NCBI GenBank assembly: GCA_963555985.3
Contig: OY820591.1
Location: 64,001-128,000, forward strand
Source of the DNA: Dehalococcoidia bacterium
GTDB taxonomy: Bacteria > Chloroflexota > Dehalococcoidia > Bin125
Direction: 5' to 3'
Length of the DNA: 64,000 nucleotides
Shown: in pieces, positions 5,985 to 48,718 of the stretch
Position numbering within the stretch: the first letter of the stretch is position 1
How the letters are laid out: every line of letters starts with the position of its first letter
Notes under the pieces: model-generated
What the model saw: only the letters and a program-made list of their open reading frames with translations
Told to the model about the DNA's origin: nothing
Databases searched by the model: none
Translations under genes and position numbers: made by a program

Positions 5985-6157
5985 GTCGTCCCTGTTTCCA
6001 GCGCAGGCGCTTGTGCTCGATGATGATCCTACAGAACGGCTGGGTTGGCGTGGAGGGAGAGGGGAAAGGCACGGTAGGGACTGGACGGTCGCGGTTTGCG
6101 GCCTGACGGGGGCTGTAAGAAAAAAACGAGGTGGGGTCGCCGCTTGCAGTCGGGGGA

Positions 6158-6514
6158 TTACTGCGGCTCTTCCTCTTCCTCGAGGCTGTCGTCGTCGTCC
6201 GGCAGGGGCACGTCTTCGCCGCGCATGAGGGCGACGGCGATGGCGTGGGGATGGAGGTGGAGTTCTTTCTTCTGCTCGGGAGTGAGCGGAGCTTCGGGGA
6301 GTCTGGGGGAGTGGTTGGCTCGGGGTTTGGGCGCGGGTTCGGGGTGGGGTTCGAGGTCGAGCGCGTGGTGGATCTCGCGGCTCTTGGCGTTGGAGGGGGA
6401 GAGTTCGCGGACGAGGAGGGCGAGCGCTTTGATGCGGACGTGGCCGGCTTCGTTGGAGTGGGCGATTTGGCCGACGCCGGTCATGCTGGACTGGTAGGTG
6501 TAGTCGAAGGGCAT
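6158..6514 (-). CDS. 118-aa acidic-tailed hypothetical protein, paralog of 43040..43396 (putative small-terminase-like partner)
   Basis: MPFDYTYQSSMTGVGQIA..RELSPSNAKSREIHHAL..LPEAPLT..ALMRGEDVPL aligns end to end with 43040..43396; AAGGA RBS-like site upstream. Confidence 0.8.
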   Translation of the reverse strand: MPFDYTYQSSMTGVGQIAHSNEAGHVRIKALALLVRELSPSNAKSREIHHALDLEPHPEPAPKPRANHSPRLPEAPLTPEQKKELHLHPHAIAVALMRGEDVPLPDDDDSLEEEEEPQ

Positions 6515-6633
6515 GGCGGGGTGTTCCTTTCTTGGGGAATGAAGGACTCTTGAGCTTATCTGGATGGATGTTCGGATTGCAAGTTGGTTGGATGTGTTGT
6601 GGTTGTCGTTGGGGGGTTGGGTGCTGGTCACGG

Positions 6634-6750
6634 CGAGATACCCGCGACGGGGCGCGGGTATGACGGAGCTTTTTGGGAATGACGGAGTTCTGGGCGCGGG
6701 CATGACGGAGCCTTTTGGGAATGACAGAGGGGGCGCGGGAATGAGAGGGC
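6634..6750. repeat. Array of CGTC-type palindrome halves (family B) upstream of the small ORF
   Basis: CGAGATACCCGCGACGGGGCGCGGGTATGACG followed by repeated ..ATGACGGAG units; homologous to 42625-42745. Confidence 0.75.
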
Positions 6751-39025: not shown

Positions 39026-39351
39026 GGAGGTTTTGGGCCGGCGAGCGTGCGAGTTGATCTGGTTTGCCGCTCGCTCTATCGTTGAGCCTTGAGCACCCAG
39101 CTCTGGGTCGCCAAATGTTCGGAGTTGAGCCCACTCTCGGCCTTCGACGTATTCCGGCAGTCCAGTCCCGGTCACCACACCTTCGGTGGTCGGAGCGCCA
39201 CCGAAACCAGGACCGGCGCGTTGGATCGCTCGATGCAGCGCCGAACCACGGGACCTCGCTTGGCTCCATACGAACGTGGCGTCTTACCGCTGGGGAATTC
39301 TCTGGACGCCCCCACTCACTGCGAGCGGGGGCGTCCGGCTGATTGGCGATC

Positions 39352-40005
39352 ATGTCACAACGGGTTTCGTTGTTCATCGACTACCAGAACGCATACGGCC
39401 AAGCACGCGACCTGTTCCACCAGCCGGATGACGATCCCACCTGCGGGCAGTTTCGCCCCTGGGCGCTTGGCGAATTCGTCTGCGGCCAGTACAACGAGCG
39501 ACATCCTGGGGAACCGCCCCTGGAGCTGAATGAAGTGCGGCTCTATCGGGGAGAGCCCGTGCGGCGAATGAGCCAGGTTGCATATGACGCCTTTCAACGC
39601 CAGCGCGCTGCCTGGGAGCAGGCGGGCGTGCAAGTCTTCTCAGCACCATTGCAGTATGACCAGCATGGCGAACCGCAGGCTGAGAAAGAGATCGACGTAC
39701 AACTCGCGATTGACTTCGTCATTGGCGCGGTCGAGCGGACATACGATGTTGGCGTGCTCTTCTCATTCGATCGCGATCTGCTACCGGCACTGCGATACGT
39801 TCGTGCGCAGCAGGCAAGCCACTGCCGGGCCGACGTTGCCGGCTGGGGCGGGATCAGAGACGGTAGATACTTGAGTCCGCCTGGTCAACGCCCTGTTCGT
39901 CATCTGGTTGGCAAGTCGGATTATCAGCGTCTGGCGGACGCCACCGACTATACGAAGCGAAGCTCGAACTATCGCCGAGCTCGACGACAGCGCCGCCGCC
40001 GCTGA
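39352..40005 (+). CDS. NYN (LabA/DUF88, PIN-like) domain protein 1
   Basis: LFIDYQN, EKEIDVQLAIDFV, LFSFDRDLLPAL motifs. Confidence 0.9.
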   Translation: MSQRVSLFIDYQNAYGQARDLFHQPDDDPTCGQFRPWALGEFVCGQYNERHPGEPPLELNEVRLYRGEPVRRMSQVAYDAFQRQRAAWEQAGVQVFSAPLQYDQHGEPQAEKEIDVQLAIDFVIGAVERTYDVGVLFSFDRDLLPALRYVRAQQASHCRADVAGWGGIRDGRYLSPPGQRPVRHLVGKSDYQRLADATDYTKRSSNYRRARRQRRRR

Positions 40006-40507: not shown

Positions 40508-41902
40508 CTAGCCGATGGCGGCTCGGCGCGGAGGACGGGGCGGTTCGTCGTCGGCCGGTTCGGTCGAGCGAATGTCGTCGGCGTCGAGCATGTGCCCCAT
40601 CTTCTCGTGTTTGACCGAGAGATAGCGCACGTTGTGGGGGTTGGCGCTGGCGATCACGGGCACGCGCTCGACGATTTCGAGGCCGTAACCGGCGAGACCG
40701 TGGCGCTTGGCCGGGTTGTTGGTCATCAGGCGGATGCGGGAGACGCCGAGGTCGCGCAGAATCTGCATCCCGATTCCGTAGTCACGGCGGTCGGGGGCAA
40801 AGCCGAGCGCGAGATTGGCTTCGACCGTATCCATGCCCTGATCCTGGAGCGCGTAGGCGGCGATCTTGTTGTGCAGACCGATCCCGCGGCCCTCCTGAGC
40901 CATGTAGACGATCACGCCGCGGCGCTCTTCGGCGACCATGCGCATAGCCAAGTCCAACTGCTCGCCGCAGTCGCAGCGCTGGGAGCCGAAGACGTCGCCG
41001 GTGAGGCATTGCGAGTGGACGCGGACGAGGGTGGGATGTTCGCCGTTGACGTGACCCATCACCATCGCTACGTGCTCTTCGGCGTGGTCCGAGGTGCGGT
41101 AGCCGATCAGCCGCCAGGTGCCGTGCGCGGTCGGCAGCTTGGCCTCGGAGACGCGCTCGACCAGCTGCTCGGTGCGCAGGCGATACTGGATGATCTGCTC
41201 AACCGAGACAATCTTGAGCTTGTGGCGCTTGGAGAAGCGAACGAGCTCAGGCAAGCGCGCCATCGTGCCGTCGCGCTTCATGATCTCGCAGATCACCGCA
41301 CCCGGCTGGAGTCCGGCCAGACGGCAGAGATCGACCGAAGCCTCGGTCTGGCCGGCGCGGACGAGCACGCCGCCGTCGCGGGCGCGGAGCGGGAACATAT
41401 GCCCCGGCCGCACGAGGTCGTCGGGGCCGGAGTTGAGATCCATCAAGACTTGAATCGTGCGGGCGCGGTCGTGGGCGGAGATGCCGGTGGTGACGCCGGT
41501 GCGAGCTTCGACGCTGACCGTGAAGGCGGTGCCGAGCGGCGCCGTGTTCTGTCCGACCATCGGGTAGAGGCTGAGTTGATCGAGCCGATCGCCGTCCATG
41601 GGTACGCAGATCAGTCCGCGCGCGTGGGTGGCCATGAAGTTGATCGTGTCGGCGGTCACGAACTGGGCGGGCAGCGCGAGATCGCCCTCGTTCTCGCGAT
41701 CCTCGTCGTCCGTGATGATCAGCATTTCGCCCTGGGCGAAAGCCTCGATCGCCTCTTCGACGGTGCAGAAGGGAGACTGCCTGCGCTTGGACGCGCGGCG
41801 CTTGGCGGGCTTGCGCCGCGCGCGCGGCTGCTTCGCCGCCGCTTCCCGGCCGGCGCTCTCATTGGCGGGAGCGGATTCAGGGACGGACTCGGCCTCAGTC
41901 AT
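40508..41902 (-). CDS. ribBA: Bifunctional DHBP synthase/GTP cyclohydrolase II
   Basis: DDEDRENEGD, RPGHMFPL, VRVHSQCLTGDVFGSQRCDC, QEGRGIG, MTNNP; start 41902 overlaps the ribE stop (alternative 41941). Confidence 0.96.
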   Translation of the reverse strand: MTEAESVPESAPANESAGREAAAKQPRARRKPAKRRASKRRQSPFCTVEEAIEAFAQGEMLIITDDEDRENEGDLALPAQFVTADTINFMATHARGLICVPMDGDRLDQLSLYPMVGQNTAPLGTAFTVSVEARTGVTTGISAHDRARTIQVLMDLNSGPDDLVRPGHMFPLRARDGGVLVRAGQTEASVDLCRLAGLQPGAVICEIMKRDGTMARLPELVRFSKRHKLKIVSVEQIIQYRLRTEQLVERVSEAKLPTAHGTWRLIGYRTSDHAEEHVAMVMGHVNGEHPTLVRVHSQCLTGDVFGSQRCDCGEQLDLAMRMVAEERRGVIVYMAQEGRGIGLHNKIAAYALQDQGMDTVEANLALGFAPDRRDYGIGMQILRDLGVSRIRLMTNNPAKRHGLAGYGLEIVERVPVIASANPHNVRYLSVKHEKMGHMLDADDIRSTEPADDEPPRPPRRAAIG

Positions 41903-42536
41903 GGATTCCCCCTCCGGCGAGATCGAGTTGGGGTCGGTCATGGCTTTCCCGTTCCGCTTCTCTGGCGCTGATCAGCGCGTCCACATAGCGCGCGAGGATG
42001 TCGGTCTCCAGATTCACCTCGTCGCCCGCTCGGCGGTCGAGCAGGTTGGTGTGCTCCTGAGTGTATTGAACCAGGGAGACGGCAAAGCCCAATTCGTCCT
42101 TGTCAATAATCGTGAGCGAAACGCCGTCGATGCAGATGGGCCCTTTGACGATCATGTAGCGAAGCAGTTCGGGCGGCGCGTCGTAGGAGACGACGATCGC
42201 GTCGGCCTCCGGGCGGGTGTCGCGGAAGGCGCCGCGCCCCTCAACCACGCCGCGCACCAGATGCCCGCTGAGCCGATCCATCGGCCGCACCGATCGCTCC
42301 AGGTTGACCCGCGCTCCCGCTCCGAGTTGGCCCAGATTGGAGCGGCGGTAGGTCTCGGGCATCACGTTGGCGAGGAAGCGATCGCCGTCGATTGCAGTGA
42401 CGGTGAGGTCAACGCCGTTAATGGCGATGGAGTCGCCGAGCTTGGCGTCTGCGAGGATGAGGGGAGCGTGGATCCAGAGGAGTCCGTCGTCGGCTTGGTC
42501 GATCAGGCCGACTTCTTCGATGATGCCGGTGAACAC
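41895..42536 (-). CDS. ribE: Riboflavin synthase alpha chain
   Basis: MFTGIIEE, GDSIAINGVDLT, VNLER, KGPICIDGVSLT, VNLETD motifs. Confidence 0.97.
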   Translation of the reverse strand: MFTGIIEEVGLIDQADDGLLWIHAPLILADAKLGDSIAINGVDLTVTAIDGDRFLANVMPETYRRSNLGQLGAGARVNLERSVRPMDRLSGHLVRGVVEGRGAFRDTRPEADAIVVSYDAPPELLRYMIVKGPICIDGVSLTIIDKDELGFAVSLVQYTQEHTNLLDRRAGDEVNLETDILARYVDALISAREAERESHDRPQLDLAGGGIHD

Positions 42537-43039
42537 GTGCGCCTCCTGGGTTTGGGGTCATGGTACCTGGGAGGCTGGCTTTTGGGCGTTGGGGCGTCCC
42601 CTCGCCCCAGCTCCTTCCGCCTACCTCCGTCATACCCGCGCCCAGAGCTCCGCCATCCCCGCCCCAACAAGCTCCGTCATACCCGCGCCCCGTCGCGGAG
42701 CCTGTCCCCGCGAAGGCGGGGATCACTCGCCGCGACCAGCACCCCAGCCCCGGCCGCCTCCCATTTCCGTCATTCCTGCGCAGGCAGGAACCACGAACCT
42801 CCCAACCCCCAAACGCAAATCAAAACCCCCGCCGTACCCCGACCGCCCCAAACCCCAACTCCCCTCTCCCCCCTCCGCGGAGCCTGTCCCCGCGTAGGCG
42901 GGGAGGGAGATGTCCCGTAGGGACAGAGGGGGGGGCGCCCCTCAAATGCCAACCACGACACACCCCCAAATTACCCACCCGAACACCCATCCATATAAGA
43001 TCAAGTGTCCTTCATTGAGCAAGAGAGGAACCCGGACCC

Positions 43040-43396
43040 ATGCCCTTCAACTACAGCTACCAGTCCGCCATGGCCGGCGTCGGCGAGCTCGCCTTCTCCA
43101 AGCGCGAACCCGGCTACGTCCGCGCCCAAGCCTTCGCCATCCTGCGCCGCGAACTCTCCCCCGCCAACCCCAAGAGCCGCGAGATCCACTACGCGCTCGG
43201 CATCGAACCCCACCCCGAGCCCCCGCCCCGGCCCAACCATTCCCCCCACCTGCCCGAAGCCCCGCTCACCGCTGAGCAGCAGAAGGAGTTCCACCTCCAC
43301 TCGGTCCACGCCCAAGCAGCCGCCCTCATGCGCGGCGAAGACGTCCCCCTGACGGAGGACGAGGAAAGCGAAGAGGAAGAGGATGAGCCACAGTAA
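43040..43396 (+). CDS. 118-aa hypothetical protein, putative small-terminase-like subunit
   Basis: Overlaps the TerL start by 14 nt; GAGAGGA RBS; paralog at 6158-6514. The TerS role is inferred from position. Confidence 0.75.
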   Translation: MPFNYSYQSAMAGVGELAFSKREPGYVRAQAFAILRRELSPANPKSREIHYALGIEPHPEPPPRPNHSPHLPEAPLTAEQQKEFHLHSVHAQAAALMRGEDVPLTEDEESEEEEDEPQ

Positions 43397-44804
43397 TACC
43401 CCCAGCTCAAAGCGGGCGGTCGTTGCGTTCGACCGCTTGCACAAGTCTCGCGGTTTTTTTCCGACGGACAGACAGCGCGAGCTCTGTTGCGCAGTCGCTA
43501 CCGTGCCCAATCCCGGCCTCGCCCTGGTCGGCTACGGCGGCGCCATGGGCGGCGGCAAGACCCGCGCCCTGGCCGAGCTCGCCCTGGACGCGGCCTTGAT
43601 CTTCCCGGGCAACAACATCCTGCTCGCACGCGACACGTTCACAGACCTCTACACCACGACCATGGGCGAGTTCCTGCGCATCTGCACCGCAGACCCCGAC
43701 CTCACTGTCCAACGCCGCAGTTCACCCACCCATTCCCTCACGGTCAGCAGCCTCCAGTACTCGAGCGAACCCTCCACGATCCACTTTCGCCATCTCTCCG
43801 ACTGGACCGGACTCGGCTCCCAGCAGTACGGAACCGTGCTCATAGACGAAGCCGGCGAAGTGGCCGAAGAAGCCGCCCAAATGCTCTTGACCAGACTCCG
43901 CCACCCGGCCCAACCGCAACGCTGGTTCGTGGCCGCCTCCAACCCCCATCCAGGCTGGTTCGAGCGCTGGTTCGTCCAACGCGAACTGAACAAAGCTGAA
44001 CTGGAGCACGCCGGCGGACAAGCCCGCTTCATCCCCGCCAAGATCGAGGACAACCCCTATCTCCCGGACAACTACGCCGAGCAGCAGCGCGCCCTGCTCC
44101 CGCCCGACTGGGTCGAACGCTTCATCGAGGGCCGCTTCGACGCCTTCGACGGCCTCGTCTACCCCAAATTCGACCCCAAGCTGCACTGCTGGACGGGACG
44201 CCTACCCAGCTTCGAGCGCTACATCGGCGGCCTCGACTTCGGCGCTCAGACCGAGCAAGCCCACTACACCGCCGGCATCGTCGCCGGCCTCACCGCCCGC
44301 TACGCCGTCTGCGGACCCAACGTCTTGATCCGCCTGGCCGAGTTCGAGGACAGAGGCCCCGGCGTCACCCAGCGGCTCGAACAGTGGATGCTCCAGTGCC
44401 GCCGGCGCTTCGGCTCAATCAGTTGGAACGCCGACCGCAGCCAATCCGCCTGGATCGACCATCTTCACCGCCGCGGCCGCGACATCCGTCCCAGCCGGGG
44501 CGGGCCCGGCTCCGTCCACCAGGGCATCGGCCTGGTCCAAGAGCGGCTCGCCGCCGACCCGCCCCAGTCCTTCTACACCCCCGAGCTCGTCCAGTTCCCG
44601 CGCCGCATGAGGGAGTACCAGTGGCGAGACCCCCGCGCCGCCAACCCCCAACCCCGAGACCGCGACGACGACCTCCTGGACGCCGACCGCTACTGCCACG
44701 AGCTGGCCCAACCCCAGCCCCAAGCCCCAACCACCCGGATCGAGTTCTTCCACCTCCCGCCCGTCGACCGCGGCCGCATCGCCAGCATGAGAAACCAGCT
44801 CTAA
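43383..44804 (+). CDS. Phage terminase large subunit-like protein (ATPase plus RNase H-like nuclease)
   Basis: PTDRQ adenine-binding motif, GGAMGGGKT (Walker A), VLIDEA (Walker B), ASNP coupling motif, DNPYL, GLDFG and DDDLLDADRY nuclease motifs. Confidence 0.92.
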   Translation: MSHSNTPSSKRAVVAFDRLHKSRGFFPTDRQRELCCAVATVPNPGLALVGYGGAMGGGKTRALAELALDAALIFPGNNILLARDTFTDLYTTTMGEFLRICTADPDLTVQRRSSPTHSLTVSSLQYSSEPSTIHFRHLSDWTGLGSQQYGTVLIDEAGEVAEEAAQMLLTRLRHPAQPQRWFVAASNPHPGWFERWFVQRELNKAELEHAGGQARFIPAKIEDNPYLPDNYAEQQRALLPPDWVERFIEGRFDAFDGLVYPKFDPKLHCWTGRLPSFERYIGGLDFGAQTEQAHYTAGIVAGLTARYAVCGPNVLIRLAEFEDRGPGVTQRLEQWMLQCRRRFGSISWNADRSQSAWIDHLHRRGRDIRPSRGGPGSVHQGIGLVQERLAADPPQSFYTPELVQFPRRMREYQWRDPRAANPQPRDRDDDLLDADRYCHELAQPQPQAPTTRIEFFHLPPVDRGRIASMRNQL

Positions 44805-45067
44805 CCCATGCCCACCCACAATTCCGTCATCCCCGCCCCCAAGAATCTCCCCCTCAAGGGGGAGATGCCCCAACGGGGCAGAGGGGGTGAAACGCCACCC
44901 CCAGCACAAACGCCCCCAACCAACCTCCCCTCTCCCCCTCTGCGGAGCCTGTCCCCGCGCACGCGGGGAGGGAGATGCCGCGCAGGCGGGGGACAGAGGG
45001 GGGTACCCACCCCCAGCATCCAAGCCCCAAGCAACCCCCAAGGAGACCTGCGCGTAATCCCAAATTC

Positions 45068-45172
45068 CGTCATTCCAGGCTTGACCTGGAATCTCGTCCA
45101 GAATTGCAGACTATCTGGTCGGAGCGAGATTCCAGCGTTCGCCGGAATGACGAGAGCAACGGGAATAGCCAA
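45068..45172. repeat. Family A doublet, inverted copy of 14351-14452
   Basis: Both palindromes, the spacer CTATCTGGTC and the flank GAGAGCAACGGGAAT match the 14351-14452 element. Confidence 0.88.
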
Positions 45173-45180
45173 GTGAGGCG

Positions 45181-46773
45181 CTACTCGGTGAGGGCTTTGA
45201 TGAGGGTGTTGAGGCCGTTGGGGGATTTTCGGTAGTAGCGGTAGCCGGCCTTGCGCCAGCTATCGGCGGTGGGGGCGTTTCGGGAATGGAGCGGGGCTGT
45301 GATCCATTGGCGCTCGCGGCCTTGTGCGGAAGCTTCGGAGGCTTCGCGGAGGCGTTCGGCGGCGCTGGGAGCGGCGCCTGCTCGGAGAGTGAGGCAGACC
45401 AGTTCGGCGCTCTCGCGCTCGGCCGGCAGACGCAGCGCGGCCACGCCGAGCGCGGGACGTCCGCGCTCGGCGCTTGCCATCCAGAGCACAGCCTCGCCCC
45501 GCCGAGCCTCTTCGAGCAGGGTTGCGGCCATGGGCGGAAGTTGGGCGGCGGCCAAGAGTTCATCGATCTCAGCTGCGTCGGCGGGGCCGGCGGGACGCAG
45601 GCGGATATCGAGTTCGTGCTCGGGCGGCGTGGGATAGCCGCTGATCAGGAGGTCGTCGCCCAGCTGCTCGACGCTGAGGCCGGAGAGCCGGAGCGCGTCG
45701 CGCATCCGCTCGGCGCCGCGCCCGCGCACGGCGGTCTGAGCGTCGCCGCCGATCAGCATCGGCGCGACGACGGCGTGGACTTTGTCGATCAGGCGTTGGT
45801 CGAAGAATGCGCCCAGGACTTCGCCCCCGCCCTCGACCAGCAGGTGGACGACGCCGGCCTGCTGTCCGAGCTGGTCGAGCAAGGGTTCGAGGGGGACGCG
45901 CCCGTGCTCGGCGGGGAGCGTGAGCACGCTGACGCCGCGCGCTTCGAGGCTGACGCGCCAGTCTTCGGGCGCAGCCTCGGTAGTCGCGATCAGAGTGGGG
46001 GAAGTGTCGATCCCGTCCAGGATGCGCGCATCGAGAGGAGTGCGGCCGCGGCTGTCGAGCACGACGCGGAGCGGTTGGGGCACGGGTCCGCGCCAGTCGG
46101 CGGGGCGGGCGGTGAGTTGAGGGTTGTCGAGCAGGATCGTGCCGACGCCGACCAGGATGGCGTCGAAACGGGGTCGGTTCTGGTGCGCCCAAGCGAGCGT
46201 CTGAGGACCGGAGATCCAGCGGGAGTCGCCGCTGACGGCGGCGATCCGTCCGTCGAGCGAGGCGGCGAACTTGGCCGAAACGAAGGGGCGTCCGCTGCGG
46301 CGGTGATGTTGGTACGGCTCGTAGTGTTGCGCGGCCTGGGCTGCGTCGTCGCCGACGCTGACGCTGATGCCGGCCTTGCGGAGTTGTTCGAGTCCGCGTC
46401 CGGCGACTTGGGGATCGGGGTCGAGGCAGGCGACGACGACTTGGGCGACGCCGGCGCGGATCAGAGCGTCGGCGCAGGGCGGGGTGCGTCCCTGGTGGGC
46501 GCAGGGTTCGAGGGTGACATAGAGGGTGGCGCCCCGGGCTTGGGCGCCAGCCTGGCGCAGGGCGACCGCTTCGGCGTGAGGGCCGCCCGGGGGCTGGGTC
46601 GCGCCTTCACCGACGATCCGGATCGATTGGCGGCGCTCGTCGCTGCGGGGGTGTTGGACGAGGACTGCGCCGACGGCGGGGTTGGGGCTGGTCCAGCCGA
46701 GCGCGGAGCGGGCGAGTTCGAAGGCTCGCGCCATGGGGCGGGAGAGTGCGGGTTGGGCGGGCGTGGTCGTCAT
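45181..46773 (-). CDS. ribD: Riboflavin biosynthesis deaminase/reductase RibD with C-terminal GNAT-like extension
   Basis: SPNPAVG, HAE, TLEPCAHQGRTPPC, ASLDG, DNPQLT, LVEGG motifs; about 150 extra C-terminal residues. Confidence 0.95.
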   Translation of the reverse strand: MTTTPAQPALSRPMARAFELARSALGWTSPNPAVGAVLVQHPRSDERRQSIRIVGEGATQPPGGPHAEAVALRQAGAQARGATLYVTLEPCAHQGRTPPCADALIRAGVAQVVVACLDPDPQVAGRGLEQLRKAGISVSVGDDAAQAAQHYEPYQHHRRSGRPFVSAKFAASLDGRIAAVSGDSRWISGPQTLAWAHQNRPRFDAILVGVGTILLDNPQLTARPADWRGPVPQPLRVVLDSRGRTPLDARILDGIDTSPTLIATTEAAPEDWRVSLEARGVSVLTLPAEHGRVPLEPLLDQLGQQAGVVHLLVEGGGEVLGAFFDQRLIDKVHAVVAPMLIGGDAQTAVRGRGAERMRDALRLSGLSVEQLGDDLLISGYPTPPEHELDIRLRPAGPADAAEIDELLAAAQLPPMAATLLEEARRGEAVLWMASAERGRPALGVAALRLPAERESAELVCLTLRAGAAPSAAERLREASEASAQGRERQWITAPLHSRNAPTADSWRKAGYRYYRKSPNGLNTLIKALTE

Positions 46774-48095
46774 GTCGCGCGGCGGCGGTTGAGGTTCCAG
46801 AGGAAGGCCCAGAGCAGGAGGGCGGCGACGGTGACGGCGGCGAGCGCGATCTGGACGGGGGTTTCCCAGCTCGGGTCGGCGCTGAATTCGCCTGCCGCCT
46901 GGGGCCGGGCGGGGATGGGCCAGTCGTCGGCGTGGCGATCGGCGCTGCGGTGGACGGTGCGCTGGTCGTGGTCGGGGATCTGGATGCGGCGGACGCGCTC
47001 TCCGTCCTGTCCGGCTGTGGAGACGACGATCACGCGAACGGGTTGGGGATCGTCCGGTTGGTCGTCGCTGAGGGCGGCGGGTTCGCTCTGCTGCTCGGGC
47101 TCGGCGACGGGTTGGCTCTGCGCTTCGGCTTCGGGTTGGGCGTCGGCGTCAGTGGAGGCGGTGTCTGCGCCGGCGTCGTCTGCCACGTCTACAGCGTCCG
47201 CTGCCGGCTCAGCTTGGGCCGTCTGGTTGGTGTTGGGCGCGTCGTGCTCGGGGGTGGCGGACTGGGACTGGGACTGCCCGGTGTTGATGCCGGCGGTGAC
47301 GGCGCCGCGAGCGGGATCGCGGGCGGCCTCCTGTTGCTCGGCGGTGATGGCAGGAGGCGTGTCTTCGGCGGCGGTCTGTTCGGCTTGGGCGAGCGGCTGC
47401 GCTTGCTCTGTTTCGGCTTGCGCTTCTTCGGCTGCCGCCGGCGCAGCGGTTGGTTCAGGTGCTTGGGATTGCACCGCTGCGGTCGCCGACTGTTGGGCCG
47501 GTTCGCTTGAGGCGGCGGCGACAGTCGCGGTTTGTTCGGCCGGTTCGGTTTCGATTGGAGCGGCGGGCGGATCGGCGGCCTGGGCTGCGGACTGTTGGGC
47601 GGTCTGCGCGTCGGCGGTTGCAGCGGTCGTGACTGCGGCGGCGGTTGGTTCCGGAGTCGCGGCGAGCGGTGCGGAGCCGTCGGGATCGTCGAGCATGTCG
47701 AAGCCGCTGACGGTGGCGAGCGCGACCAGGGAGGCGACGGCGCCGGCGGTGGCGAGCCGCAGGGGGATGGCGCGGACGGCGGTCGCGCGTTCGTTGAGGG
47801 GTTGGGCATGGGCGGCGCGGGCGGCGGCGAACTGGGTTTCACTGAGCTCGAAGCTGCGGGGCAGTTCGGCCGTGGAGAGCAAGGCGAGGGTTTGCTGGAC
47901 GTGTTCGATCTCGGCGAGCCACTGGCGCCGCTCCGGAGAGTCGTCGAGGCGGGCCTGGGCGCGTTCGCGTTGGGCGGAGGTGAGTTCGTCGTCGGCGTAT
48001 GCGGAGAGTTCGGCGCGCCAGGCGCGGGTCCAGGGTAGGCGCGGCCGGAGCCGGAGTCTGAGCCCAGATCGGCGGGGTGGATTCGGACCTCTCAC
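46770..48095 (-). CDS. Putative anti-sigma factor with long Ala/Gln/Pro-rich linker
   Basis: ELSAYADDELT..RAQARL zf-HC2-like start lacking His/Cys, PRSF motif, two hydrophobic helices; downstream of the ECF sigma; start uncertain. Confidence 0.7.
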   Translation of the reverse strand: MRGPNPPRRSGLRLRLRPRLPWTRAWRAELSAYADDELTSAQRERAQARLDDSPERRQWLAEIEHVQQTLALLSTAELPRSFELSETQFAAARAAHAQPLNERATAVRAIPLRLATAGAVASLVALATVSGFDMLDDPDGSAPLAATPEPTAAAVTTAATADAQTAQQSAAQAADPPAAPIETEPAEQTATVAAASSEPAQQSATAAVQSQAPEPTAAPAAAEEAQAETEQAQPLAQAEQTAAEDTPPAITAEQQEAARDPARGAVTAGINTGQSQSQSATPEHDAPNTNQTAQAEPAADAVDVADDAGADTASTDADAQPEAEAQSQPVAEPEQQSEPAALSDDQPDDPQPVRVIVVSTAGQDGERVRRIQIPDHDQRTVHRSADRHADDWPIPARPQAAGEFSADPSWETPVQIALAAVTVAALLLWAFLWNLNRRRAT

Positions 48096-48133
48096 GGTTG
48101 CTGCTCCTGTACAGCTAGACGCTGAAGCATTGG

Positions 48134-48718
48134 TCAGAGTTCCCCTCGCTCGGGCAGCAGCTCGCGCATTTTGGCGCGGGCGCGGGCGATGCGCGACTTC
48201 ACCGTACCAACTGAGACATTGGTGGCGCTGGCGATTTCCTGGTAAGAGAAGCCGTCGATGTCGCGCAGGGTCAGGGCTTGGCGCTGATCGTCGGGCAATT
48301 GGGCGAGAGCGGCGACGATTACGCGACGTAACTCGCTATCGAGCGCGCGGCGTTCGGGGGAGCGCTCTCGGCTCGGCAGGGCGTAGGCGTCGCCAAAGGT
48401 CTCCATTTGCTGGTCGATGGAGTCGGTCGGTCGGCGTTTGCGGCGTCGCAGTTCGTCGCGGCAGCGGTTGCCGGCGATGGTCAGCAGCCAACCGGCGAAA
48501 TTTCCACCGCGATAACGATCGAGCGAGCCGAGGGCGCGAATGAAGGTGTCCTGGGTGATGTCTTCGGCGGTGTCCGGTCCGACCATGCCGGCGCAGAGTG
48601 CGAAGACGCGGCGCTGGTAGCGGCGGACGAGGGTGTTGAAGGAGGCGCGGTCGCCGGCGCGCGCGGCGGCGGCGAGATCGTCGTCGCTGGGAGGCGGTTG
48701 GTCGGCTGCGCTGCTCAC
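48134..48718 (-). CDS. ECF sigma-70 factor
   Basis: AEDITQDTFIRA, WLLTIAGNRCRDELRR, FSYQEIA..GTVKSRIARAR motifs. Confidence 0.95.
   Translation of the reverse strand: MSSAADQPPPSDDDLAAAARAGDRASFNTLVRRYQRRVFALCAGMVGPDTAEDITQDTFIRALGSLDRYRGGNFAGWLLTIAGNRCRDELRRRKRRPTDSIDQQMETFGDAYALPSRERSPERRALDSELRRVIVAALAQLPDDQRQALTLRDIDGFSYQEIASATNVSVGTVKSRIARARAKMRELLPERGEL

Follow-up and report, generated by a model that had tools for sequence, protein, structure and literature searches.

Here we describe a two-gene cassette of about 1.9 kb, made up of a small open reading frame (ORF1) and a gene for a large terminase (TerL), that sits between the riboflavin genes ribE and ribD of a Dehalococcoidia bacterium and recurs, whole or truncated, across the genome. 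The window, that is, the whole stretch of DNA that was analysed, is 64,000 nucleotides long (G000:C1:64001-128000) and belongs to a 3.33-Mb assembly that is 96.4% complete, with a contamination estimate of 7.5%; positions without a contig prefix refer to the window.

The cassette between ribE and ribD

The low-coordinate flank of the insertion is formed by the riboflavin synthase gene ribE (41895-42536, minus strand; Pfam Lum_binding, 2.6e-39) and the high-coordinate flank by ribD (45181-46773, minus strand; Pfam RibD_C, 5.5e-49, with a deaminase domain); ribBA and ribH lie further on, and Pfam confirms all four rib genes. Between the flanks, everything is oriented on the plus strand: a left array of repetitive extragenic palindromic (REP)-like hairpin modules (42597-42944), a leader of about 95 nt (42945-43039), ORF1, which encodes a TerS-like protein of 118 aa whose N-terminal helix motif is conserved and whose acidic tail ends in ..EDEPQ (43040-43396), the TerL-like large terminase of 473 aa with its ATPase domain and RNase H-like nuclease domain (43383-44804), the right end common to full cassettes, about 9–12 nt past the TerL stop codon (44805-44816), and a right array of REP-like modules (44817-45172), partly common to four of the five full copies in the genome. 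The original prediction, made from the letters of the window, had placed such a unit antisense between ribD and ribE, with a 118-aa ORF upstream of TerL and overlapping it; coordinates and Pfam matches bear this out, and the overlap is 14 nt.

By profile searches and modelling, the 473-aa ORF is a complete large terminase that has the two-domain fold and keeps its catalytic residues, and a packaging function is predicted for it. TerL matches Pfam Terminase_6N (4.9e-8, 33.3 bits against a cut-off of 22) and Terminase_3 (1e-7, 32.1 bits against a cut-off of 23.2), and its residues 51-440 match PHROG_2, ‘terminase large subunit’, at 1.6e-26. Walker A (G50-K59), Walker B (D155-E156) and the acidic residues of the nuclease (D285, D351 and D429-D435) are invariant across 43 family members, and a profile of these 43 members finds the D6E large terminase in the PDB (E 3.7e-11, with the nuclease half aligned). 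The AlphaFold2 model of TerL has a predicted local distance difference test score (pLDDT) of 84.2, and a Foldseek search of the PDB with this model is headed by large terminases, D6E first (E 2.6e-21), followed by those of Sf6, HK97, T4, and P74-26. Pfam, PHROG_2, the invariant residues, and the fold thus agree with the ATPase and nuclease motifs that had been read from the sequence.

The assignment of ORF1 as a TerS is a lead only. ORF1 itself matches no Pfam or PHROG family, the best TerS-family match among ORF1-type ORFs of relatives (PHROG_51) reaches only E 0.1, and the nearest named ESM-Atlas cluster carries Terminase_2 in 29% of its members, at a score of 0.89. In position, ORF1 is what is expected of a small gene upstream of terL, overlapping the TerL start. 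The prediction of a TerL–ORF1 complex scored 0.28 against a mark of 0.32 and was counted neither for nor against the pairing. Homologs of ORF1 at E<=1e-3 are confined to its own genome and one 3.4-kb metagenome contig, which also carries a TerL of 70% identity.

With the TerS–TerL pairs of pac-type phages (e.g., D6E TerL, PDB 5OE8/5OEA), the cassette shares the two-domain architecture of an ATPase and an RNase H-like nuclease with its catalytic residues, a small gene that lies directly upstream and overlaps the TerL start, and an acidic C-terminal tail. It differs from them in that its TerL is only 24–28% identical to the closest phage TerL among 50,697 phage records, that it lies outside a TerS–TerL–portal–head module (no portal or capsid gene stands beside any of the five TerL copies of the genome), that it is multicopy in a chromosome, and that its small protein matches no TerS family.

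Among relatives, ribD adjoins ribE in 22 of 23 loci, with gaps of about 5–184 nt between matched segments; the remaining locus has no ribD inside its 1.5-kb flank, and in two genera, g8 and g3, the stop codon of ribD and the start codon of ribE overlap. The spacing in the window is 2,644 nt, and because the two genes adjoin in these 22 loci the window copy is an insertion, as the original prediction had supposed in speaking of split riboflavin genes.

The C-rich coding strand to which attention had been drawn is real (GC skew of −0.17 to −0.36), but it is not special to the cassette: neighbouring genes on the opposite strand show the mirror-image skew, so that the bias is largely a habit of the genome. 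A strict scan for promoters and terminators in 42500-45250 found neither, and since the promoter scan of the window copy was empty, we make no claim for a promoter or a mobile promoter. TTGCAA-17-ATAAG-like hexamers were spotted by eye in the leader and are not supported by that scan. An Rfam search of 41800-47000 gave no match.

Copies, solo units and REP-like modules in the genome

The genome holds five intact full-length TerL copies (100, 97, 97, 97, and 87% protein identity) along with short N-terminal fragments of the gene. These five are its only Terminase_3 matches, and the family TerL_ATPase (PF03354) has no match in it. ORF1 is more numerous, with 28 copies. Eight of these are 80–100% identical to the query, five accompanied by a full TerL, two by a TerL stub, and one without TerL; the other 20 are 55–71% identical and lack TerL, and ordinary host genes (purQ/purL-like, ndk-like, dehydrogenase) follow. 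The flanking genes are unlike at every site. What the five full copies have in common starts about 95 nt ahead of ORF1 and stops about 9–12 nt past the TerL stop codon; the copy at C1:2030941 (minus strand) departs from the others exactly at this right end, and the other four also share part of the downstream repeat array.

About 20 of the units are solo units, which share the leader with the full copies (it is common to all 28 units in alignments of the 5 full copies and of the 28 units) and end on the right at a single point, level with TerL codon ~43 of the full copies. A solo unit is thus a leader and ORF1 followed by what is left of the decayed 5′ part of TerL, and it has spread in this truncated form. 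One such unit lies in the window (6068-6614, minus strand), where the leader and an intact ORF1 (6161-6514) precede a stub of decayed TerL 5′ sequence; three co-oriented TCCGTCAT modules stand just upstream of it (6660-6702), and a co-oriented 503-aa gene begins 84 nt past its right end. Most solo units meet unique DNA directly at the right end, with no REP module there. In 16 of 20 solo units (15 of 19 when a duplicate on contig C9 is left out), the next downstream gene runs in the same direction as the unit, usually starting 50–150 nt past the right end, and so it does in four of the five full copies, the window copy being the exception; these neighbour counts depend on a GC-frame heuristic for gene calling, which replaced greedy longest-ORF calls that were unreliable in the GC-rich flanks. 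The units are unevenly spaced (none at 0.92–1.69 Mb) and of mixed orientation, and inspection by eye showed no replichore pattern in their orientation. On the small contig C9, the purQ/purL-like locus is repeated together with its solo unit (C9:12029-12382 versus C1:421721-422086), which probably reflects strain heterogeneity in the assembly.

Sequence comparison shows purifying selection on both proteins. The five TerL copies have no stop codon in any of them, and their pairwise ratios of nonsynonymous to synonymous substitution (dN/dS) are 0.10–0.28 at dS values of 0.12–0.31; the cassette is thus neither single-copy nor neutral, where a single neutral copy would have spoken against the original prediction. 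ORF1 is intact in 26 of its 28 copies (116–126 aa). For 17 solo ORF1 copies, a set that excludes two degenerate copies and the C9 duplicate, dN/dS is 0.32, and the variable columns fall 33/16/57 by codon position, which is a coding pattern. Nucleotide identity among solo units rises from 80% in the leader to 90% in ORF1 and to 93% in the non-coding 3′ stub.

The palindrome clusters noted on both sides of the cassette are present as described, but they consist of REP-like modules that are scattered over the whole genome and whose link to the units is polar. The genome contains 197 occurrences of TCCGTCATTCC, where 1.3 would be expected, and 46 of CCCCTCAAGGGGG, where 0.5 would be expected; TCCGTCATACC occurs 119 times, and TCCGTCAT has 474 sites in about 328 arrays. 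The left array of the window copy contains TCCGTCAT hairpins at 42626, 42673, and 42766 and one GGGAGATG..GACAGAGGGGG module. In the 500 nt upstream of the units there are 57 TCCGTCAT sites, every one on the strand of its unit, and 26 of the 28 units have one or more of them; the duplicated unit of other genomes has its start precisely at a hairpin of this kind.

Candidates for a mobilising enzyme were sought by family. The Y1/RAYT (REP-associated tyrosine) transposase family (PF01797) has no match in the 96.4%-complete genome, and mobilisation of the RAYT/IS200 type was dropped on this ground. The unit consists of ORF1 and TerL only, and no recognised transposase family is found inside it. 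The original prediction had recognised no portal, capsid, or integrase gene in the 64 kb, and this stands: Phage_portal has 0 matches genome-wide, Phage_capsid has one sub-threshold match outside the window, and Phage_integrase, searched as the marker of tyrosine recombinases, has just two matches, both outside the window and away from the cassettes. This check of the window relies on whole-genome family searches, and transposase families were not scanned across it.

Relatives and their capsid-like genes

A search of 40 relatives found TerL-like genes in 11, namely in every genome of the genera g3 (2/2), g7 (5/5), and g8 (4/4) and in none of the other 29. By RibE identity, these three genera are nearest to the genus of the window (78–82%, versus 60–69% for the rest of the family). 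More widely, a protein search returned at least 200 TerL homologs at 55–73% identity, of which the named ones are from Chloroflexota and many lie on Mb-size contigs, and a scan of species-representative genomes gave 74 loci, all in Dehalococcoidia/Chloroflexota metagenome-assembled genomes except one on a 2.5-kb contig binned as Gammaproteobacteria. The closest homologs are accordingly chromosomal Chloroflexota genes and not, as an ordinary prophage origin would have it, genes of complete prophages, phage TerLs reaching 24–28% at best. A quick tree of 69 TerLs, of the kind that the original prediction had proposed, joins the five copies of the genome in one clade (Shimodaira–Hasegawa-like approximate likelihood-ratio test, 100); copies from a single genome split over several subfamilies, and a few pairs are recent.

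Comparison of these loci shows that the duplicated unit in other genomes is again just the two genes. Paralog pairs share the cassette only (L092/L093, 2,437 nt at 96%; L101/L107, about 2.2 kb) and end at the TerL stop codon, within 3 nt. Solo units with TerL stubs also recur (L073/L146, 619 nt; L084/L145; L140/L141), and six of eight TerL stubs are preceded by an intact type-a ORF, a seventh (L142) having its ORF on the opposite strand. A divergent small ORF partners TerL in at least 51 of the 74 loci, 30 of type a (including ORF1 of the window) and 21 of type b; the remaining 23 are unclear by regex typing, and nine of them have a small ORF on the opposite strand. All types of small ORF combine an N-terminal helix motif with an acidic ..DEDEPP tail, which is retained even in those that do not overlap TerL. 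In one TerL subfamily (L076, L090, L092, L093, L100, L101, L107, L110, and L142), the ORF1-like gene and TerL are divergent, on opposite strands, and the ..DEDEPP tail is kept. As a further observation, three TerL genes in other genomes (G018:C1:3458744-3460189; G006:C4:98619-100133 and 326787-328232) match in two pieces around residue 305-313, with about 85–110 extra nt within one open frame.

The genome also keeps phage-derived genes outside the window. At C1:1960835-1979500 (loci L039 and L147), a single-copy phage-derived set is interleaved with host genes for a coenzyme A (CoA)-transferase, RecF, and a major facilitator superfamily (MFS) protein. It includes a gene resembling that of a major capsid protein (MCP-like, 313 aa, C1:1976280-1977218), whose Phage_capsid match of 1.5e-3 is below the cut-off and an ortholog of which matches the PHROG ‘major head’ weakly (1.8e-3), and a portal-like gene, fam9 (654 aa, C1:1960835-1962796), so described from ESM-Atlas features. 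The set is completed by scaffold-like and endolysin genes and by genes for two small proteins and for membrane proteins. The block conserved across genera comprises scaffold-like and MCP-like genes, F3, F8, F4, a membrane protein, and an Amidase_2 endolysin (4.4e-17). The MCP-like gene is found in 10 and fam9 in 11 of the 40 relatives, only in g3, g7, and g8; both are single-copy and 61–74% identical to the genes described here. Since the genomes of these three genera are kin, their co-occurrence with TerL reflects one shared history and lends no independent support.

For fam9, the role of a portal is only a lead. The ten best named ESM-Atlas matches are all viral portal clusters, at 0.96; the AlphaFold2 model has a pLDDT of 46.7, and Pfam SPP1_portal is matched in one of 42 family members (3.2e-3), these 42 being spread over the ranking. 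PHROGs gave nothing useful, fam9 profiles had no match in the PDB, and tblastn against the phage collection returned no match for fam9 or for the MCP-like protein. PhageMin_Tail, a tape-measure marker, had no match, other tail families not being searched. In 11–12 of the 74 loci, the MCP-like block lies within 10 kb of a type-b TerS–TerL pair, in one syntenic arrangement in which host CoA-transferase genes intervene between the pair and the block genes. The expected absence of portal and capsid neighbours thus holds for the five copies of the genome but not for these loci, and the terminase is an orphan only locally, because its own genome and g3, g7, and g8, four genera in all, keep single-copy capsid-like, portal-like, and endolysin genes elsewhere.

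How the cassette may spread, and its neighbourhood

In the reading that we prefer, with a probability of roughly 55%, the genome has five intact copies, window 42945-44816 among them, of a two-gene terminase cassette of about 1.9 kb that is mobile and self-propagating here and in relatives. The cassette is multicopy with unrelated flanks, it is inserted in the window together with co-oriented REP-like modules, and a truncated derivative of it has reached about 20 sites, most of them a short way ahead of host genes that point in the same direction. Its own proteins would do the moving: ORF1 would recognise the left part of the element (leader or hairpin, as a pac-like site), TerL would supply the cuts and the motor, full copies would provide TerL in trans to solo units, and new copies would land at or beside REP-like hairpin arrays. 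We infer movement by these proteins because they are encoded by the only genes in the unit and keep the catalytic residues in every copy, because what the derivatives retain is the left end with the recognition-type ORF, and because searches gave no other mobilising enzyme. Since the lineage keeps one capsid-like, portal-like, scaffold-like, and endolysin set, the cassette most likely escaped, as a packaging module, from an old phage-derived system that has been retained. Of the functions that the original prediction had offered (a selfish element, a device redirecting the packaging of a helper phage or gene transfer agent to host DNA, or an anti-phage decoy), the selfish element gains the most, from the copies, the insertion, and the truncated derivatives.

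Several properties of the cassette recall insertion sequences (ISs) with non-autonomous derivatives resembling miniature inverted-repeat transposable elements (MITEs), and REP/RAYT systems: copies in unrelated contexts, an empty site in relatives, several subfamilies per genome, full copies outnumbered by shorter derivatives, and a link to short palindromic repeats. It differs from both in having no recognised transposase family, terminal inverted repeats, target duplication, or RAYT, and its solo units keep an intact ORF under selection, whereas MITE-like derivatives lose their coding capacity.

A number of points weigh against a self-propagating cassette. To our knowledge, no terminase has been shown to catalyse transposition. 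Neither terminal inverted repeats nor a target-site duplication could be defined, only REP palindromes, and these modules blur the left boundary of the cassette. In contigs from four sequencing runs (one study), none joins ribE to ribD without the cassette, so that neither an empty site nor excision was seen; run-derived contigs break at the REP arrays, and the joints 42743>44844 and 42744>45041, whose sides are 20–47 nt long, resemble REP-to-REP joins. The dS of 0.12–0.31 between TerL copies means that no copy is a fresh transposition. Solo truncation points differ between genomes, so some solo units may be simple deletions, and the gene calls in the flanks rest on our own GC-frame heuristic. 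A 338-aa ORF (L147:6915-7931, plus strand) next to the copy at C1:1954540 has an N-terminal helix-turn-helix and, by eye, resembles an IS-type transposase. Finally, the kept capsid-like and portal-like genes allow a packaging role at the level of the host, which leaves live a reading of the module as part of a gene transfer agent (GTA) or another packaging system.

This last alternative, which is unlikely but the best of the rivals and not exclusive of a mobile cassette, sees the pair as the domesticated packaging module of a GTA-like capsid system. The single-copy capsid-like, portal-like, scaffold-like, and endolysin genes would build its particles, the dispersed TerS-like units would serve as pac sites that extend packaging along the chromosome, and recombination, rather than the terminase, would have raised the copy number. 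In pac-type phages, pac sites lie inside terS genes. The shared distribution of TerL-like (11), MCP-like (10), and fam9 (11) genes over the 40 relatives, all in g3, g7, and g8 and none in the other 29, fits such a system, as do the conservation of the head-like and lysis gene block across genera, its single syntenic arrangement within 10 kb of TerS–TerL in 11–12 of 74 loci, the viral portal clusters that make up all ten best named ESM-Atlas matches of fam9 (0.96), and the fact that the genome is without a terminase other than the five copies. Like GTAs of the RcGTA type, the set has putative head, packaging, and lysis genes that are intact, syntenic, vertically inherited across genera, and partly dispersed among host genes. 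On the other side, PhageMin_Tail was not matched here, the portal call is weak (pLDDT 46.7; SPP1_portal in 1/42 at 3.2e-3; no PDB or phage match), and the MCP-like gene stays under the Pfam cut-offs. The uneven spacing of the units (none at 0.92–1.69 Mb) and their mixed orientations do not favour pac sites, and the precise shared ends and the arrival at new sites are left unexplained. We know of no GTA with a multicopy terminase module or TerS-only derivatives, and none of the titles and abstracts listed by a literature search describes such a system in Chloroflexi.

The two readings may be joined. An autonomous 2-kb ‘terminase transposon’, in which a TerS-like protein marks the DNA of the element and TerL cuts and moves it, would then have TerS-only non-autonomous derivatives, and the roughly 28 TerS/pac-like units would also turn the retained tailless capsid–portal–lysis set of sponge-type Dehalococcoidia into a whole-genome GTA-like packaging system; we put this forward tentatively, as somewhat improbable in its entirety.

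Less probable than a GTA-like system is that the cassette is passive cargo, copied by a REP-mobilising activity or by recombination between REP arrays, with ORF1 and TerL kept for some other role. The 474 TCCGTCAT sites in about 328 arrays, the modules that flank units on both sides, the part of the right array shared by four of five full copies, and the left–right array joints in contigs are all consistent with it. Yet no Y1/RAYT transposase was found in the 96%-complete genome, most solo units abut unique DNA at the right end with no REP module, paralog pairs in other genomes stop at the TerL stop codon, and both proteins are under purifying selection in all copies.

An anti-phage device, in which a TerS-like protein and TerL would act as a decoy, or as satellites do, and disrupt the packaging of an infecting phage or divert it, is very improbable. 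Satellites that carry their own terminase subunits provide an analogy, and intactness and selection are the only features that speak for it. Terminase-carrying satellites such as phage-inducible chromosomal islands (PICIs; those with TerS and those that form capsids) likewise keep packaging genes apart from a complete phage; the cassette differs from satellites of the PICI type in lacking an integrase and a replication or regulatory module and in being about 2 kb long and multicopy. No defence-island neighbours or other satellite genes were found in the 74 loci, the nearest phage TerL is just 24–28% identical, and the proliferation of solo units is not explained.

That the locus is an ordinary decaying prophage remnant, to which the phage ancestry of the TerL gene family might point, is contradicted by the copy count (five intact copies under purifying selection), the ribD–ribE adjacency in relatives, and dN/dS, as well as by the conservation of the family across four genera as a precise two-gene unit with no integrase nearby, and we set it aside, in line with the minimal terminase-only unit first proposed.

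Terminases are packaging enzymes tied to the virus head module. Here a TerS-like/TerL pair alone multiplies, under purifying selection, and spawns shorter derivatives before host genes; none of the titles and abstracts listed by literature searches gives an account of such a cassette. If the proteins move their own DNA, they would represent a class of mobile element built on a packaging ATPase–nuclease and would join viral terminases to RNase H-fold transposases as a living link. Should the units serve the capsid-like and portal-like genes instead, they would belong to a GTA-like system in Chloroflexota with an unusual choice of packaged DNA. On either reading, the element reshapes operons, here that of riboflavin, and promoter regions in little-studied uncultured bacteria.

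The surroundings of the rib genes yielded some further observations. RibD of the window is 530 aa long, and its C-terminal extension of about 150 aa past RibD_C is matched in relatives of the same family; matches in other families stop near residue 380. Directly upstream of ribD (46770-48718, minus strand) are genes for an extracytoplasmic function (ECF) sigma factor (48134-48718) and then a 441-aa protein (46770-48095) that is Ala/Pro/Gln-rich and has no Pfam match, and whose position suggests an anti-sigma factor. An NYN-domain protein (1.1e-8) is encoded at 39343-40005 (plus strand), adjoining ribH.

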